Below, in pieces: positions 1 to 7,243 of a stretch of DNA of 64,000 bases (position 1 is the stretch's first letter; every line of letters starts with the position of its first letter). Under the pieces are notes generated by a model. It did no database searches. It was given only the letters and a program-made list of their open reading frames with translations, and was not told the DNA's origin. This DNA comes from an uncultured Acidobacteriota bacterium. Lineage in GTDB: Bacteria > Acidobacteriota > UBA6911. The position numbers and the translations under genes are program-made. The stretch lies in NCBI GenBank assembly GCA_963827655.1, contig CAWHCF010000021.1, forward strand, positions 1 to 64,000. The letters run 5' to 3'.

Positions 1-600
1 GGCTGGTATGGGCATCTTTCCGTGATTGCCTGCGTCATGCTCGCCTTTCGGCGCCGCATGATCCATCACGGCGCCGTCGCGGTGCAGCAGTTCGGCAATT
101 CGTATTTTCCCACTCATTCTGTTCGTTGCCATCAGCATCACCGGGCTGATGCGACCGCCAGCTATACCTGGATGAAGGGGTACGCGTATGATTTCCTCGC
201 TATCCTGCACGCCATCACGGTGATCTTCACGCTGTGGTCAGCCTTCTGTTCGGGAAGTTGTTTCGCATCTTCCAGCGGCTCGGCGCAGCTCGGCGTGAGC
301 TTCTACAAGGATGCTGGGCAGCAAACGGAACAGGTCCGCTGCCACCGATGCGGGCAGGCGTTCGCTTCGGCCATGATGGTGCGTGATACCGACCATCGTT
401 CAGAAACAACTCGGGTTCACTTACGAAATCGGCAGCGAAAGCGGCGTTGCCCACCATTACCAGCAGGTGTGTCCCCGCTGTCGTCGGGCCCTTTTCGGCC
501 TCGCGCAGAGGCCGCCCAACGGGAGCGCCACCTTACCCAGCGCATTGCGGAAGAATCACCCGGCAACCAGCAGACGCGGTGACCATCTTGGTAATTCAGC
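1..600 (+). CDS. NarI/DsrM-like membrane protein with a C-terminal Cys-rich tail (5' partial, frameshifted)
   Basis: Pieces across frames give TM helices, '[12 protein letters not shown]', a 'FGKLF' segment and '[12 protein letters not shown]', then CHRC...CPRC. Directly upstream of the Mo enzyme. Confidence 0.6.
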
Positions 601-613
601 CCCAGAGCACTCC

Positions 614-2888
614 ATGGCTACGATCCCCGTTCCCGAGCTGTAACATCATCGAGAAATTCGGACCGCATCTTTCGGTCATGACCGGGTTACAGCTGTCCAC
701 CAGCGTCGAACCGGACCGGCTCGTTCGCACGCATTGTTGCTTCTGCGGCCAGCAGTGCGGTATCCAGTTGAAGGTCAGGGACAACCAGGTCATCGGCTTC
801 GAGCCGTGGGAGGAGTTTCCGTTCAATCGAGGGATGCTGTATCCAAAGGGGGTCAAGCGCTACCTCCAGGGTTCGCACCCCGACCGGCTCCTGACCGCGC
901 TACGGCACGACCCTTCGGCCCCCGGTGGGTTCCGAGCGATCCCTTATGGCGACGGCAATCGCCAGGGTGGCCGCGGAATTCGACCAGATTCAGAAGACGG
1001 CACGGGAACAGCGCCATTGGTGTGCTTGGAGGCGCCAGTCTGACAACCAGAAAACCTGCTGCTGGGCAAATTTGCGCGCGTCTGTCTGAAGACGCCATTC
1101 ATCGACTACAACGGACGCCTCTGCATGGTGAGCGCCGGTGCTGCCAACAAGAAAGCCTTTGGCATCGACCGCACCACGAATCCGTGGTCCGACATGATCG
1201 GAACTGAGGTGATCTGGGTCGCCGGCTCGAACGTCGCGGAGTGCTCTCCTATCACGACTAACTACATCTGGCAGGCGCGCGAGCAGGGGGCGAAAGTGAT
1301 CGTGCAGGATCCACGGATCACGCCCATCGCTCGGACGTGCGACCTGTTCCTGCCCGTGAAGCCGGGCCGCGATGCGGCACTGTTCGCCGGCGTGCTGCAA
1401 CAAATGATAGAGCACGACTGGCTCGACCACGAATTCATCGATGGGTTTACTCTTCAATTTGAGCAGGTTGAAGAGTACTGCCGGTCCTGGACCCTGGCCA
1501 GAACCGCCGAGGTCACAGGCGTGCCCGAGCGGTCGATCCGACAGGCGGCCGAATGGTGGGGCACCGCTCGAAGCAGCTTCCTCTTCCACGCGCGTGGCAT
1601 TGAACATCATTCAAACGGCGTCCAGAACTGCCTCGGGACCGTCAACCTTGTGCTTGCGTCAGGACGGATTGGAAAACCGAAATGCGGGTACGGAACCATC
1701 GTCGGCCAGGGCAATGGCCAGGGTGGCCGCGAACACGGGCAGAAGTGCGATCAGCTCCCCGGCTGGCGCGAGATCGCCAATCCGGCCCACCGCAAGTACA
1801 TCGCCGGGGTGTGGGGAATCGACGAGAAAGACATGCCCGGGCCCGGAGTCGACGCCTACGAGATGTTCCGCAAGATCGACGCCGGCGAAATCCGTGGCCT
1901 GCTAACGATCTGCTTCAATCCGAAGGTTTCGTTGCCGGACAACACGTTTATCACGCGGTGTCTCGAAAAACTGGAATTCTACACCGCGATCGACTTTTTC
2001 CTGAATGACACGGCACATCATGCCAATGTCGTCCTGCCTGGCAGCCTGCACGAAGAAGACGAGGGAACCGTGACGCAGGTCGAGGGTCGCGTGATAAAGA
2101 TTAACAAGGCGGTCGACTGCCCAGGTGAAGCAAGGCAGGATTGGCGGATCCTTCAGGACATTGCCGCCGCGCTGGGCCGACCCAAGGGCTTCACCTTCAC
2201 CCACCCGCGCGAAATTTTCGACGAGCTGCGCATAGCCAGCAAAGGCGGGATTGCGGACTACTCGGGCATAACCTACGAGAAGATCGAGCGACAGATGGGT
2301 GTGTTCTGGCCATGCTACAGCGAGGACCCGGAGACCGGTCGGCCCATCGAGGATCATTCAGGTACGCCCCGATTGTTTGAGCGCGGCAGCTACAATCCGG
2401 TGGCCAAAGGAAATGGACCCTTTTACTTTCCCGATGGCAAGGCTCGTTTCAACATCGCCGAATACCGGCCGCCCGTCGACGATGCCAGCGAGGAGTATCC
2501 CATCTTCCTTACCACGGGTCGCGTCGTCAGCCAGTTCTTGTCCGGCACCCAGACGCGTCGAATCGGCCCGTTGGTGCAGCAGTACCCCGAGCCCCGAATC
2601 GAGATGCATCCGAGGCTGGCAGAGAAGCTGGGAATTCGAGATGGTGACTGGACCACAGCGGAAACGCGCAGGGGCGCCATCACGCTGAAGGCGATGGTCG
2701 TCATGACGATCCGTCCCGACACGATCTTCGTCCCGTACCACTGGCCAGGCAAGAAGTGCGTGAACCAGCTCACGGTTGCCGCCCAGGACCCGATCAGCAA
2801 GATCCCGCAGTATAAGGTTTGTGGTTGCCGCGTTCGCAAGGCGGACGGGACCCCCGACTACGTGGATACTCTCGAGCCGCAGCAATAG
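614..2888 (+). CDS. Mo-bisPGD oxidoreductase catalytic subunit, NasA/NapA/FdhF-like (frameshifts near 640 and 950-1060)
   Basis: N-terminal [11 protein letters not shown]...GMLYPKG Fe-S motif, '[12 protein letters not shown]' Mo-ligand Cys region, [10 protein letters not shown], and a C-terminal LTTGR...molybdopterin dinucleotide-binding domain. No Tat signal seen. Confidence 0.9.
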
Positions 2889-2898
2889 GGAGCGGTTG

Positions 2899-3726
2899 AT
2901 GGGCAAACCCGAGTTTCTGCATTTCTTCATCGATCCCAATCGATGTATTGGATGCCAGGCCTGTGTGCAGGCCTGCACGGAGTGCGATACGCACCGCGGC
3001 GAATCCATGATCCACCTGGATTATGTCGACCGCTCAAACAGCGTGCAGACCGTGCCGGTGGTGTGTATGCACTGCGAGCAGCCGACCTGCGCCGAGGTCT
3101 GTCCCGCCGACGCCATAAAGCGCACCGGTGATGGTGTCGTGCAATCCGCCAGCAAGCCGCGATGCATCGCATGCGGCAACTGCGTGCTCGCGTGTCCGTT
3201 TGGCGTGCCGGAGGTGTATGTGGACCGGCAGATCATGATGAAGTGCGACATGTGCTACGACCGTTCGAGTGCGGGAAAGAAACCGATGTGCGCGACCGTG
3301 TGTCCCAGTCAGGCGCTCTTCTTCGGGACCCGGGAGCAGATCGGGCAACTGCGTCCGATGTCAGTACCGGTGAACACCTTTCGTTTCGGGAACCAAACCA
3401 TCACCACCCGTGTGTTCGCCATGATGCCGGCACGAAAAACGATTTCGCCGTCGTATCTCGATGTCACCGCCGCGATGGAGGAAAAGCCGCAGGCTCGGGC
3501 CGTGTCCCTCAAAGTTCTTACCGGGCCGGTGAGTCTCCAGGGCGCGCCATCGAGAGAGAACAGTGACGCGCGCGATCGCGCTCTCTCGACCCGTTCGAGG
3601 AGGTCGAGATCTGAAGGGTCCGCGCAGAAACAAGTTCCGCATTCTGCTGCAGGACCCCTGGGCGCGATCCTAAACGTGCTAGCTGGTTGGTTCATAATTG
3701 CGATGACGTATTGGGCAGAGCGGTAG
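2899..3726 (+). CDS. DmsB/NrfC-type 4x[4Fe-4S] electron-transfer subunit
   Basis: [37 protein letters not shown] and KCDMC...CATVCP motifs. The true end may be TGA 3612-3614 (DPFEEVEI*) after a frameshift. Confidence 0.9.
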
Positions 3727-3763
3727 GAGTCGGCTGTGTTGTCGCCTGAGGCCGAAGGCCCGT

Positions 3764-3927
3764 CTGAGATTCTCAAAAAACTGTTCTGTGGCGACGGGTC
3801 ATCAGACCCGTCGCCAGTAACGTGATCGGGAGGATTAGCCTTAAAAAGCTCTTTCGTGCCACTAGGGGGCCGGACGGGCTTGATAGCCCGTCCGCACATG
3901 TATCGGGTCGTTCTGCGACAGCCTCTA
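3764..3927 (+). mobile_element. MITE/REPIN-like two-hairpin element, copy 1
   Basis: Hairpins gcgacgggtc-atca-gacccgtcgc and cggacgggct-tgat-agcccgtccg. Collinear with the reverse complement of 28165-28317. Confidence 0.7.
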
Positions 3928-3957
3928 ATGACCCGCGCCACCAAGGAGTCTCCCAGG

Positions 3958-4611
3958 ATGAGTGACAATAAGATGCCCATCGGTCCCCGCGACTCAGTCG
4001 ATGTCCGGGTGGACACGCCTGGGCGCGAAGGGCTGACCGGAACCGCGCCGGCCAGTCTCTATCAGCCGACGATCGAAACCGAGCAGATCACGCTGGCGCC
4101 GGACTGGCGCCCGGCCGAGCAGCAGCCGGCGTGGCGTCGCGACTTCCCGATCGACTGGCCCCAGGACCACTACGTCGCACGCCGCGATTTCATGAAGTTC
4201 ATGGTCCTGACCAGCCTGGCGTTTACCATGGGTCAGTTCTGGATCGCGCTCCAGAACTTGTTACGGAAGGCGCGAGGCAAGCCTGAGCTTAAAAGAATCG
4301 GGTGGCTCAGCCAGGTTCCGATCGGCGGCGTCCTCACGTTCGCATACCCTGGCGAAGAGGACGCGTGCATACTCATCCGTCCGGCGCGCGATATCATGTT
4401 CGCATATAGCCAGGAATGCACGCATCTGGCGTGCGCCGTCATTCCCCGGCTCGACAAGGACGTGATCCACTGTCCGTGTCATGAGGGTTATTTCGAGCTG
4501 CGATCCGGCCGGCCTGTAGCCGGTCCACCTCGGCGTCCCTTGCCACGAATTCAGCTCGATGTTCGCGGCGATGCCATATACGCCGCAGGAGTCGAATGGA
4601 GGACAGTTTGA
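3958..4611 (+). CDS. Membrane-anchored Rieske [2Fe-2S] protein
   Basis: CTHLAC and CPCHEGYF boxes; an RRDFMK twin-arginine-like motif followed by a TM helix. Confidence 0.9.
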   Translation: MSDNKMPIGPRDSVDVRVDTPGREGLTGTAPASLYQPTIETEQITLAPDWRPAEQQPAWRRDFPIDWPQDHYVARRDFMKFMVLTSLAFTMGQFWIALQNLLRKARGKPELKRIGWLSQVPIGGVLTFAYPGEEDACILIRPARDIMFAYSQECTHLACAVIPRLDKDVIHCPCHEGYFELRSGRPVAGPPRRPLPRIQLDVRGDAIYAAGVEWRTV

Positions 4612-4613
4612 GT

Positions 4614-4850
4614 ATGGCCGTCAAACGTCCGTTCACGCGCGAGCAGCGCAGCACCGTCATATACGGAATGATCGCATTCGTGCTGATCCTTGTGATCCTT
4701 CAGCTCTGGCTGCTGACGGCCACCATGAACGCGTATCTCGGCGGCGATGCGTCGGTGATCTGGCCGGCGGCGGGTGCAAGCCTGCTATGCCTGCTTTTAA
4801 ACGTCGGCCTGCTGCGATACCTGTACTACATCGAGCGAGAACGGCGATGA
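4614..4850 (+). CDS. Small two-TM membrane protein (DUF6755-like)
   Basis: 78 aa, two hydrophobic helices, 'QLWLLTATMNAYLGG'; tightly coupled to both neighbours. Confidence 0.7.
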   Translation: MAVKRPFTREQRSTVIYGMIAFVLILVILQLWLLTATMNAYLGGDASVIWPAAGASLLCLLLNVGLLRYLYYIERERR

Positions 4851-5987
4851 GCGCCGACGCCAAGCCGGAATCGATGCCCGCTGCTCTTGCCGGCTCTGTC
4901 GCGCCGGCGGGAAAGGGCGGCGCCCCTGCGGGCCTCGCCGGGCTGCATCCGGCCTACTTTGCCATGGTGATGGCAACCGGGATCGTCTCGATCGCCTCGC
5001 ACTCGCTCGGGTTCCAGACGCTTGCCCTCGTGCTGTTTCCGCTCAATATCATTTTTTATGGGACGCTCTGGGGCCTGACGATCGCGCGCGCAGTGCGGCA
5101 CACCGATCAAGTCATTGCCGACCTGATGCACCATGGACGATCCGTCGGCTTTTTTACGACGGTTGCCGCCACGTGTGTCCTTGGCAACCAGAGCCTGGTG
5201 ATCGGTGGTCTGTGGCGGACGGCGGCGATACTGTGGATAATCGGGATTATCTTGTGGGCCGACATTACCTATGGCGTCTTCACGATCCTGACCGTCAAGG
5301 AAGTCAAACCTACGCTGGCGGAGGGAATCAACGGCGGGTGGCTGGTCGCCGTCGTCGCCGCCCAGTCCGTTGTCGTCCTGGGTGCGCAGCTGGCAACCGG
5401 TTTTACGCCTTACCAGGCACACGTGCTGCTGTTCTGTCTTGCGATGTGGCTCGGCGGCGGGATGCTCTATATCTGGATCATCTCGCTGATCTTCTACCGC
5501 TACACTTTTTTCCCCTTGAGCCCGTCCGACCTTGCGCCACCATTTTGGATCAACATGGGCGCGGTCGCGATTTCGACCCTGGCCGGAACGGCGCTGATCG
5601 GCGCGCGCTCCGCATTCGGGGGTCCTCAGCGACCTGCTCCCATTCCTGAAAGGCTTTACCCTGCTGTTCTGGGCCACGGCAACGTGGTGGATTCCGATGC
5701 TGGTCATCCTCGGAATCTGGCGGCATCTCTACCGCCGGTTCCCGCTCCGTTATGATCCGCTGTACTGGGGAGCGGTCTTCCCTCTCGGCATGTACACAGT
5801 CTGCACATTCCGGCTGGCGCAGGTGATCGAGGCGCCTTTCCTTCTGCGGATTCCCCAGGTGTTCATCTATATCGCGTTGATTGCGTGGTCGCTCACGATG
5901 TTCGGCCTGCTTCACCATCTGGCTGCGTCTGGGCTCAGAAGACTGACGTCTGCGCAACCTCAATCACGCTCCGCGCCCTCGTTGTAA
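4847..5987 (+). CDS. SLAC1/TehA/TDT family anion channel (frameshift near 5610)
   Basis: 'LHPAYFAMVMATGIVS', 'PPFWINMGAVAISTLAG' and 'YWGAVFPLGMY'; about 10 TM helices; ATGA overlap with the upstream gene. Confidence 0.88.
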
Positions 5988-6086
5988 GCTCTGATTTTGA
6001 TCCGGAAACCGGGCCCCGCCGTGGTAGAGTGCCTCAACCGCCGCCTGGCATCAACCAGGCAGTAAAGCTCGCTTCAGGAGGCACCA

Positions 6087-7243
6087 ATGACCCGTCCGTC
6101 CTCGTTCTGCGGAAGGTTGTCGCGGAATCTTCTCATCGTCACGTTTGCTCTCTCGGTCCTGGGGCTGCAGGTTCCGGCGCGAACCGACCCGAGCATTCCC
6201 GCCGCTGAGTTCTCGAGACTGATCCAGCAGTTCTCGGAAGACGACGGCTACTTCCGGTCCGACAACTTCACGTCAAACGAAACCTCCTACCTTCAAGTAG
6301 TCGATCTGTTTCGCAAGTTGGACGTCTCAGGGGGCGCTTACATCGGGGTCGGACCCGAGCAGAACTTCACCTACATCGCCAAGGTCCGCCCGCGCATCGC
6401 CTTCATCGTCGATATCCGCCGCCAGGCGATGATTCAGCACCTGCTTTACAAAGCGATCTTCGAATCGGCCGCCACGCGCGCCGAGTTTCTCGCGGGACTT
6501 CTCAGCCGGCCCATCGCGGGCGAGCGCGCGCCACGAACCGGAACCTCTACGGCCGATCTTCTGGATTACTTCGAGCAGGCCCCGGCACCGGACGAAACCT
6601 TCATCGCAAACCGGGACCGCGTCCGGAAGACGATCCAGGACCGCTTCCAGATCCCCCTTTCCCAGCAGGATCTGGAGCGCCTGGACTACGTCTACTCGTC
6701 CTTCGGAAACAAGGAGTCGAAATCTCGTTTCGCTTCGGCGGACCGAACTGGTCGGGATCGTCAGGCTTTCCGACGCTGAAGGACCTGATCCTCCAGACGG
6801 ATCTCAAGGGTCGGCCCGGTAACTTTCTCGCCAGCGAGGAAGACTATCTGTTCGTGCGCGACCTGCAGCGGCGCAACCGCGTCATCCCGGTAGTGGGAGA
6901 CTTCGCCGGACCCAAGGCGCTCGCGTCGGTGGGCGAGTACCTGCGCAAGAACGGCTACACCGTCAGCGCCTTCTACACATCAAACGTCGAGCAGTTCCTG
7001 TTCCAGAACGGCGTCTTTGCGGTCTTCGCCGGCAATGTCCGAAAGCTTCCGATTGACGGCGGGAGCCTCTTCATCCGGTCGGTTTCATACCGCGGCCAGC
7101 CGCATCCCGCGAACATACCGGGATACCGAACCACGACCGTGCTTCAAAAGATCTCTGTCTTTCTGCGGGACTTCGACGGCGGAACGTTCGAGGACTATTG
7201 GAACCTGGTCACGACCCACTTCATCGCTCCAGAATTGAACTGA
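6087..7243 (+). CDS. Conserved hypothetical secreted protein (frameshift near 6710)
   Basis: Signal peptide; 'FRSDNFTSNE', 'GGAYIGVGPEQNFTYIA', 'VIPVVGDFAGPKAL' and 'FYTSNVEQFL'. ORFs 6087-6779 and 6854-7243 join through one frameshift. Confidence 0.7.

Follow-up and report, generated by a model that had tools for sequence, protein, structure and literature searches.

The window, that is, the whole 64-kb stretch analysed here (the first 64 kb of contig C21, CAWHCF010000021.1, in the 8.18-Mb, 53-contig genome G000 of an uncultured acidobacterium), opens on a redox operon for a NarI-like haem membrane protein, a molybdenum–bis(pyranopterin guanine dinucleotide) (Mo-bisPGD) enzyme, a four-cluster iron–sulfur (FeS) protein, a membrane-anchored Rieske protein, the small protein DUF6755 and a SLAC1/TehA-family anion channel. 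We think it probable, though well short of certain, that the locus encodes a membrane-bound, quinol-dependent nitrate reductase of distinct architecture. The evidence supports the view that the system is a nitrate reductase variant with an unexplained Rieske module, and that it is widespread.

The gene cluster recurs across genomes. Using the intact membrane protein of genome G033 as the query, we found matches in 65 of 401 sampled Acidobacteriota genomes at E <= 1e-5 and in 51 at E <= 1e-87. The order membrane–Mo–FeS–Rieske is present in 19 of 20 loci fetched from the phylum, and the twentieth (L047) ends after the FeS gene. The G033 locus has the identical order, and the contig of G035 ends inside the FeS gene. 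A profile of 18 membrane proteins retrieved at least 588 relatives among species-representative genomes, with titles that name at least ten phyla (Acidobacteriota, Planctomycetota, Bacteroidota, Verrucomicrobiota, Armatimonadota, Myxococcota, Chloroflexota, Actinomycetota, Bacillota and Melainabacteria). Cultured carriers include Pontibacter ummariensis and Apibacter mensalis. Among the matches listed in this search, the nearest relatives of G000 have Acidobacteriota titles. None of the conclusions depends on the unpublished genome G034.

Synteny was evaluated in the best 80 of the at least 588 loci, 49 of which have at least 6.5 kb of downstream and at least 1.5 kb of upstream sequence. In these adequately flanked loci the Mo gene is present in 49 of 49, the FeS gene in 47 and the Rieske gene in 47, and the core order is retained in 47; DUF6755 was found in at least 37 with a weak query, while a search of all 80 loci with the protein encoded in the window found it in 55. 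This arrangement is far beyond chance. The earlier note on this DNA, made from the letters alone, had proposed a synteny survey and named a gene set without synteny elsewhere as the outcome that would undo its proposal; that outcome was not seen. Two Planctomycetota-labelled loci (L078 and L088) have membrane and Mo genes with no FeS or Rieske match within 19 kb, and in L078 a hemerythrin gene and about 2.7 kb lie between the membrane and Mo genes.

In Deinococcus, four cultured strains have a copy of the operon on a megaplasmid, with Mo-subunit identities of 61–63%. In D. wulumuqiensis the RefSeq names are 'molybdopterin oxidoreductase family protein', '4Fe-4S dicluster domain-containing protein', 'Rieske 2Fe-2S domain-containing protein', 'DUF6755 family protein' and 'nitrate/nitrite transporter'. 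On its plasmid pDrdI the NarI-like haem subunit, located by tblastn (L152, 5856–6968), is labelled 'MFS transporter' by RefSeq, a label probably carried over from NarK-fused family members.

In the window, position 1 is also the start of the contig, and the membrane gene is represented by codons ~175–345 only; its end near 560 is approximate because the stop is blurred by insertions and deletions (indels). The features, with the evidence for each, are as follows (TM, transmembrane).

1–560, + strand: NarI-like, predicted di-haem membrane subunit, C-terminal half with Cys4 tail (tblastn with the intact G033 ortholog, three-frame reading)
614–2888, + strand: NasC-clade Mo-bisPGD catalytic subunit (Pfam/NCBIfam, frames, tree)
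2899–3726, + strand: four-cluster [4Fe-4S] electron-transfer subunit, DmsB/NarH type (Pfam Fer4_11; NCBIfam DmsB/HybA)
3618–3942, no strand: 325-bp insert of dispersed repeat units, FeS/Rieske intergenic (soil-contig joint 3617>3943 in runs X1 and X3, blastn)
3958–4611, + strand: membrane-anchored Rieske [2Fe-2S] subunit (Pfam PF00355; tblastn 3985–4608)
4596–4850, + strand: DUF6755, 84 amino acids, two TM helices, overlapping the Rieske stop (PF20540, 121.9 bits, cut-off 27)
4847–5987, + strand: SLAC1/TehA-family anion channel, start overlapping the DUF6755 stop (PF03595)

The observation that led to this analysis, six co-oriented and mostly tightly spaced genes, stands in part. The gene set is real and the genes are co-oriented, but the frames are broken many times and the 325-bp insert parts the FeS and Rieske genes. 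The membrane, Mo, FeS, Rieske and SLAC1 genes had been named correctly, whereas DUF6755 had been overlooked and the membrane gene is only partial.

Subunits and predicted architecture

The Mo subunit has the Fe4S4, Molybdopterin and Molydop_binding domains and an N-terminal CxxCxxxC cluster motif. Its best NCBIfam model is NasC, at 640.8 bits for the window's 587-residue piece and 846.5 bits for the intact G033 ortholog, the latter under the equivalog cut-off of 1100; lower bit scores were obtained with the models for formate dehydrogenase, Nap, Aio and Nar. The window gene gave 21.2 and 18.9 bits with the NarG model (TIGR01580, cut-off 1084.15) and 161.1 bits with NapA (TIGR01706, cut-off 930.55); the AioA model reached 105.4 bits (cut-off 359.05), and FdhF (TIGR01591) reached 625.3 bits with the G033 ortholog (cut-off 666.25). 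At the Mo ligand the window has Cys-Met, as against selenocysteine or cysteine followed by His in five aligned solved formate dehydrogenases. The sequence GR(L/F)CM is present in 30 of 30 complex-type Mo subunits and in seven nirB-linked or annotated Nas enzymes. No twin-arginine translocation (Tat) signal was found ahead of the Mo subunit in the N-termini of 78 relatives; the RRxhh string occurs in six of the 78, in each case either within the upstream gene or without a hydrophobic core. Thus both earlier statements about this subunit, that it has NasA/NapA-type motifs and that it has no Tat signal, are borne out. Among solved structures, those of cytoplasmic formate dehydrogenases and of Desulfovibrio NapA come closest, and no Nas-type structure was among the solved relatives found.

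A quick maximum-likelihood tree was built for the Mo subunits from 50 rows, with a single NapA as the root and support from the Shimodaira–Hasegawa-like approximate likelihood ratio test (SH-aLRT). The tree contains long branches (L159, L156 and L162), and its references are annotated plasmid records, without B. subtilis NasC, Synechococcus NarB or Klebsiella NasA. The 29 complex-type rows fall on one side of a branch with an SH-aLRT of 95, and a thirtieth row is added to them at 88; it comes from Brevibacillus laterosporus, where the membrane, FeS and Rieske genes are likewise present. The sister group is made up of the nirB-adjacent NasC of Skermanella, Paenibacillus, Deinococcus grandis and the acidobacterial genome G032, and the clade that holds both has a support of 100. 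The earlier note held that nesting within NasA clades that lack the partner genes would speak against a new system; given the separate clade at 95, beside the nirB-linked NasC, there is therefore no refutation from the tree. The window's Mo subunit is closest to the set L146/L077/L086, with 85% identity over 582 columns to a metagenome-assembled genome (MAG) titled Tepidisphaeraceae (Planctomycetota), and next closest to MAGs titled Acidobacteria and Acidimicrobiia. The gene tree here departs from the organism labels, which may reflect either lateral transfer or mis-binning.

In the FeS subunit, 16 cysteines in four cluster motifs are invariant among 29 aligned relatives, and there is neither a signal peptide nor a TM helix. 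The DmsB, HybA and formate dehydrogenase beta-subunit models match it under their cut-offs, and it is a four-cluster protein of the NarH/DmsB type, as had been proposed.

Six helices are predicted for the membrane subunit; a beta-sheet lies between the third and the fourth, and the chain carries a Cys4 tail. Three histidines (H113, H242 and H260) are invariant and H171 is nearly so. Its AlphaFold2 model has a predicted local distance difference test score (pLDDT) of 87.9. In a VIA-align comparison the best fold match is mycobacterial EtfD (Z 11.9, 230 residues aligned, root-mean-square deviation (rmsd) 4.7), followed by E. coli NarI (1q16_C; Z 11.0, 181 aligned, rmsd 4.9), and Z is 8 or more in three chains only; Foldseek finds EtfD and NarI at E 0.03–0.2 only. 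The subunit has no Pfam family, matches QmoC and TcuB weakly and does not qualify as a bc-type cytochrome b, and a PDB sequence search with its profile returned one meaningless match (E 0.95). On the strength of the fold match to NarI and the four conserved histidines, which agree with the earlier description of a NarI-like partner, the subunit is a NarI-fold anchor with two predicted b haems.

At the N-terminus of the Rieske protein lies the conserved peptide WRRDFPIDWPQD (W-R-x-D-F-P-I-D), of which the W..DFP motif is found in 61 of 62 frames. The window's protein continues with a Tat-like motif, ARRDFMKF (RRDF(T/M)KF in 60 of the 62 frames), one TM helix, and CTHLAC...CPCH cluster loops with disulfide cysteines. 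The CTHLSC...CPCH loops and extra disulfide cysteines, which are typical of bc1, b6f and Aio, are present in all 62 frames. With its TM/Tat anchor, CxHxxC...CxCH loops and disulfide, the protein is a bc-type Rieske; this upholds the Tat-like, membrane-anchored partner of the earlier description. The G033 Rieske protein scores 66.4 bits with the model for the arsenite oxidase small subunit (AioB), for which the cut-off is 95.65.

A four-chain model was computed for the haem protein, the FeS subunit, DUF6755 and, as the scored partner, the Rieske protein. Its interaction prediction score from aligned errors (ipSAE) is 0.84, against 0.54 for the best control; 58 of 80 solved complexes and two of 110 mismatched pairs attain this mark, counts that are only roughly valid for alignments of our own making. 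Between runs the contacts agree to at least 89%, and the partner pLDDT is at least 77. The model supports, but does not demonstrate, binding of the Rieske protein to the complex. The contacts of lowest error join the Rieske TM helix to DUF6755, which is predicted to clamp it. On the Rieske side the interface comprises the cluster loops (residues 112–120, 133–137 and 148–153) and an N-terminal segment (17–32); on the other chains it comprises haem-protein residues 136–147, 161–170 and 223–236 and FeS residues 58–79. The haem-protein residues probably correspond to outer loops and helix ends near H171 and H242. Read together with the topology, the model suggests that the Rieske cluster loops dock at outer loops of the haem protein and that the N-terminal peptide reaches the FeS subunit inside.

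Gene fusions bear on the same point. DUF6755 is fused to a NarK-like (12-TM) protein in four loci (L093, L106, L127 and L136). In 24 loci a NarK match immediately precedes the membrane gene in the same orientation; in 19 of these, at least 389 codons are open in the frame of the membrane gene, and we read these open frames as putative fusions of NarK with the haem protein. Both termini of NarK are cytoplasmic; the N-terminus and Cys4 tail of the haem protein and both ends of DUF6755 would therefore also be cytoplasmic. The Rieske head most likely faces the periplasm.

Substrate, mechanism and physiological role

Of the 49 adequately flanked loci, 31 have NarK as the transporter beside the core and 13 have SLAC1; none has both and five have neither. 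This alternation agrees with the earlier suggestion that the SLAC1 channel moves the substrate or product. The window's channel matches PF03595 at 122.2 bits (cut-off 27.9; E 3.4e-35) and, after a frameshift, at a further 39.6 bits (E 4.5e-10). A PDB sequence search gave no solved relative of the SLAC1 piece. A TehA-type channel might point to a substrate other than nitrate, for instance the oxyanions tellurite, selenate, chlorate or iodate: the window's channel matches the tellurite-resistance/dicarboxylate transporter family (TIGR00816) at E 2.1e-17, which is below the cut-off, and Mo-bisPGD enzymes are promiscuous. We nevertheless regard such a substrate as highly improbable, given that NarK (221.8 bits with the NarK model in G033) replaces the channel in most loci, that the active-site motif is that of nitrate reductases, that the operon is surrounded by nitric oxide (NO)-stress genes, and that the type strain of Apibacter adventoris reduces nitrate.

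For a nitrate reductase the following route can be proposed. The NarI-like di-haem b protein would oxidise quinol near the outer membrane face and would send the electrons inward to the four-cluster FeS subunit and then to the NasC-type Mo-bisPGD subunit, which would reduce nitrate to nitrite in the cytoplasm. A dedicated transporter, NarK in most relatives and the SLAC1/TehA channel here, would exchange nitrate and nitrite. The Tat-inserted Rieske protein, held by DUF6755, would set its bc1-type [2Fe-2S] head periplasmically over the outer haem, with its conserved N-terminal peptide reaching the cytoplasmic FeS subunit. The complex would work as a redox loop, like NarGHI/NarK, despite its 'assimilatory' NasC descent. 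Synteny, the alternation of NarK and SLAC1, the fusions and the separate Mo clade fit this membrane-linked coupling of quinol to a cytoplasmic Mo centre, which the earlier note had outlined.

Of the gene clusters recognised around the core in the 80 loci, the most widely shared are hemerythrin-domain proteins (found in 16 loci), PAS histidine kinases (in 13), di-iron repair proteins of the ScdA/YtfE type (in 12), Crp/Fnr and Rrf2 regulators (in 8 each), MoaA (in 7) and NnrS with DUF1858 (in 6). Nitrite reductase is not among the named neighbour clusters (10 scanned of the 12 present in at least four loci). A NIR_SIR query in tblastn gave no match at complex-bearing loci among the 103 loci searched; the sole match, in L014, lies beside the partner-less NasC of G032. 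The complex is not a soluble, nirB-linked Nas, as no adjacent NIR_SIR was found among the searched loci and the partners are membrane proteins.

The single PF00384 match in Apibacter mensalis is the Mo gene of the complex, and its genome has no NIR_SIR match. A positive result for nitrate reduction is recorded for the A. adventoris type strain in the part of PMC7442301 cited here, and the cited part of an Apibacter preprint (bioRxiv 10.1101/2020.09.30.321786) describes the cluster as conserved in all isolates, with nitrite detoxification genes absent. Pontibacter ummariensis and D. wulumuqiensis have an additional Mo enzyme 2–4 kb from a NIR_SIR gene. NarG is present in 15 of 51 complex-bearing Acidobacteriota genomes and in 19 of 350 others, a comparison that is descriptive only, as kin are not independent. 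In ten genomes of one family (f42; for example G148:C2:1265126-1274139) narG lies 5–29 kb from the complex, which we read as a nitrate-respiration island. The idea that the complex replaces Nar, with NarG excluded, was rejected, as both co-occur. As a separate observation, narG matches with one in-frame TAG each were seen in G125, G235, G253, G365, G273, G050 and G032, and FdhF-like matches with one in-frame TAG each in G018, G015 and G024 (genus g2); the TAG may stem from an artefact of start-site choice, from a break that they have in common or from recoding.

The role of the complex is probably dissimilatory rather than assimilatory. An assimilatory nitrate reductase fed from the quinone pool, with the nitrite passed to a sirohaem nitrite reductase encoded elsewhere, would suit a Mo subunit whose sisters are nirB-linked NasC enzymes and whose highest-scoring model is NasC; a single NIR_SIR gene is present in G000, on contig C25, and no NarG was found in this genome above the family cut-off, and the carriers are mostly soil heterotrophs. 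We consider assimilation unlikely because NIR_SIR is missing beside the complex in the loci searched, and the named neighbour families hold no nitrite reductase and instead include NO-stress and Fnr/NsrR-type genes. Furthermore, A. mensalis has the complex with no NIR_SIR match, Pontibacter and D. wulumuqiensis own a separate nirB-linked enzyme, and the complex lies near narG in one acidobacterial family. A different placement, in which the Tat signal of the Rieske protein takes the Mo and FeS subunits along through the membrane, as happens with AioA and AioB, would make the enzyme a periplasmic nitrate reductase or an oxidase of another oxyanion. The Tat-like motif of nearly all Rieske frames, the bc1/Aio-type disulfide cysteines of all of them, the AioB score of the G033 protein, and the derivation of AioA from the Nas lineage in the cited part of Wells et al. 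(PMC7331816) are in its favour. It is very unlikely in our view, as 44 of 49 loci have a nitrate/nitrite importer next to the core, which in several is fused to one or the other membrane partner, and such an importer would be needless if the active site faced the periplasm. In addition, the model interface as we read it puts the FeS subunit at the Rieske N-terminal peptide, before the TM helix, with the head on the opposite face, and the Cys ligand of Mo present here is absent in AioA.

The Rieske protein could also be given a catalytic part. In a bc1-like bifurcating quinol oxidase on a NarI scaffold, the oxidation of each quinol at the outer face would part its two electrons. One would enter the Rieske head and leave it by a periplasmic acceptor, such as cytochrome c or a cupredoxin, for NirK/Nor or an oxidase; the other would run by way of both haems and then the FeS subunit to cytoplasmic nitrate. 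If so, the first step of denitrification would be stoichiometrically coupled to the later periplasmic steps, and the NO-stress neighbours would be explained. We hold bifurcation to be rather improbable.

Several points weigh against the quinol-dependent nitrate reductase that we favour. The catalytic subunit belongs to a lineage of assimilatory enzymes. What the data show directly is gene content, synteny, clade, motifs, likeness of fold and contacts in the model; from these we infer the substrate, nitrate, the donor, quinol, and the part played by the Rieske protein, and sidedness is likewise based on fusion topology, the Tat-like motif and the model. A high-potential periplasmic Rieske centre has no obvious place in a linear chain from quinol through haem b and the FeS subunit to Mo. 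The nitrite reductase search used one sulfite/nitrite reductase-like query from G000 together with clustering, so distant forms may escape it. The nitrate-reducing phenotype is that of A. adventoris, and the genome searched is that of its sister species A. mensalis. Co-location with narGHI in one family means that the complex is not simply a substitute for Nar. Finally, the operon in G000 may be non-functional, as set out below.

State of the copy in the window

The copy in the window is incomplete and frameshifted, and is defective as assembled. Based on three-frame translation and tblastn with intact orthologs, the piece of the membrane gene reads through frames 1>2>1>3>1>2 and the first 450 bases of the Mo gene through 2>3>1>2>3. 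The breaks in the Mo gene lie at about 641, 953, about 1005, 1048 and 1057, and it is intact from 1125 to 2888. An in-frame stop at 1041–1043 was considered as a selenocysteine codon and rejected, as the stop is produced by the frame changes 3>1>2>3. Similarity of the FeS gene to its relatives ceases near 3576 (tblastn 2896–3576), and the open reading frame (ORF) continues to 3726 through the repeat insert. The channel gene has a single frameshift near 5605, with two tblastn pieces (4844–5605 and 5601–5912). Just downstream of the operon, a DUF7790/LIC_10091-like gene is seemingly split into two same-strand ORFs in different frames (6087–6779 and 6854–7243), possibly by one more indel.

The N-terminal half of the membrane gene is on another contig (G000:C53:93649-94151), 8 kb from the contig end, where its first 172 codons contain one frameshift. 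At about codon 172 the gene passes directly into a 78-bp palindromic repeat that has 237 blastn matches in G000, followed by unrelated genes; C21 resumes the membrane gene a few codons later. The insert at 3618–3942 has 240 blastn matches in G000 and is replaced by 32 other letters in soil runs X1 and X3. In the bin 3801–4000 the depth is 740–2000 in soil metagenome contigs. There appear to be two or three short, hairpin-forming dispersed repeat families, similar to repetitive extragenic palindromes (REP) or miniature inverted-repeat transposable elements (MITE), with about 240 blastn matches each in G000; they lie at about 94143–94222 of C53, within the membrane gene, and at 3614–3661 and 3786–3941 of the window.

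We overlaid contigs of four soil/rhizosphere metagenomes, from four independent studies, on positions 1–6000 of the window. Indels were listed at 96, 102, 152, 280, 388, 452, 507, 953, 1048, 1057/1058 and 3834, with 18 further places beyond these. At 11 of the 12 listed places every covering run shows the indel, or a variant at 1057/1058; the in-frame 3-base deletion at 452 was seen in one of three covering runs, and the indel at 3834 has partial depth only in three of four runs. Twelve frame-disturbing indels were counted in the window (13 with the deletion at 452), and eight of the listed ones are corrected, or have a variant at the same site, in each soil metagenome that covers the place. 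The listed soil-contig indels have the net effect of restoring the reading frames; intact versions of the genes therefore circulate in soils. RNA runs X19 and X20 gave 6–7% of sampled words.

These data bear on whether the locus in G000 is a decaying pseudogene operon, in which a repeat entered the haem-protein gene and indels then accumulated, or an assembly artefact. Interruption of the membrane gene on C53 by the palindromic repeat, with unrelated genes beyond, would be expected under decay, as would the second repeat insert at 3618–3942 and the frameshift in the C53 half, well inside its contig. The indels are not within homopolymers, and intact ORFs of 1620, 931, 865 and 783 residues elsewhere in the window indicate that the assembly is not generally error-ridden. 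In contrast, 11 of the 12 frame-disturbing indels fall within the first 1.06 kb of the contig, at the break caused by the repeat, which is a better fit to poor consensus at a contig end; the only coding-frame shift in the remaining ~4.9 kb of the locus is the one near 5605, and the covering soil runs show an indel or variant at nearly all listed places, with 452 and 3834 partial. On balance we regard decay as possible but somewhat doubtful.

Comparison with known systems

NarGHI with NarK is wired in much the same way. The likeness consists of a NarI-fold anchor (Z 11.0 to 1q16_C), four clusters in the FeS subunit, the lack of an export signal on the Mo subunit and a transporter of NarK type linked to the genes. 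The differences are that the Mo subunit here is of the NasC clade with a Cys ligand (21 bits with the narG model against a cut-off of 1084), that the anchor has six helices and a Cys4 tail, and that the Rieske protein and DUF6755 are extra. No narJ-type gene was noticed in the cluster, though no search for narJ was made.

With the NasC/NarB/NasA enzymes of Bacillus, Paracoccus and cyanobacteria the complex shares the catalytic lineage and the active-site motif, by which its Mo subunit is of Nas type. NasG of Paracoccus is a Rieske-type ferredoxin and offers a precedent for a Rieske protein near a NasC enzyme. The gene set nasABGHC is named in the cited part of PMC5424462. Unlike Nas, the complex has no nirB/nirD or diaphorase partner and its partners are membrane-bound; its Rieske protein, moreover, is TM-anchored, with a Tat-type motif and bc1/Aio disulfide cysteines. 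According to the passages cited from Wells et al. (PMC7331816), enzymes of the Fdh/Nas/Aio/Nap clade lack an association with canonical subunits of the four-cluster or membrane-anchor kind. The operon is an exception to that statement.

AioAB likewise pairs a signal-less Mo-bisPGD subunit with a Tat-signal Rieske protein, and the AioB match here is below threshold. AioA, however, lacks an amino-acid ligand to Mo in the account of Wells et al. (PMC7331816, as cited), whereas a Cys ligand is present here; four-cluster, haem b and transporter partners are additional, and only the Rieske features are Aio-like. In comparison with bc1 and b6f, the Rieske subunit is alike and the membrane subunit has the NarI/EtfD fold, not that of a bc-type cytochrome b. 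A tie between nitrate reduction and a Rieske centre is shared with haloarchaeal pNarGH, which is linked to a Rieske/cytochrome b module (cited in bioRxiv 10.1101/2020.09.30.321786, in the part used here), and with Streptomyces Nar1, which is described as dependent on the bcc complex in the excerpt used. Those enzymes are NarG-type and use a bc-type cytochrome b, whereas this one combines a NasC-type subunit with the NarI fold. The Nap cluster of Caldithrix with Rieske and cytochrome b, considered from the cited part of PMC5317091, is a different system.

The cluster has been noticed in print once. The Apibacter preprint (bioRxiv 10.1101/2020.09.30.321786), in the part cited, reports a 'NAR lacking NarI', with genes called narG and narH and a Rieske protein replacing narI. 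This is the same gene cluster: the A. mensalis locus (L129), with two NarK matches followed by membrane, Mo, FeS and Rieske genes and MoaA nearby, fits the description. Contrary to the reported absence of narI, a NarI-like gene lies directly upstream in A. mensalis. A literature search, which left about 1.7 million PMC articles and subscription journals uncovered, found no other description of the cluster and no paper on DUF6755. The earlier claim of an undescribed system thus holds insofar as the system is biochemically unstudied and has no other print description that we found, and has to yield to the preprint for the rest.

Annotation calls the catalytic gene 'molybdopterin oxidoreductase' or assimilatory nitrate reductase; nitrogen-cycle gene surveys would therefore book a probably dissimilatory enzyme as assimilation, or overlook it. 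If the reading as a nitrate reductase holds, bacterial SLAC1/TehA channels gain a testable physiological substrate, nitrate or nitrite, and a Rieske centre docked on a NarI-type cytochrome, as the model predicts, would be a new combination for bioenergetics. As the earlier note maintained, the system matches none of Nar, Nap, Nas or Aio: the NarG, NapA and AioA models stay below their cut-offs, and it is not a soluble, nirB-linked Nas. If it is indeed a nitrate reductase, it would add one more architecture to those known for the bacterial enzymes Nar, Nap and Nas.

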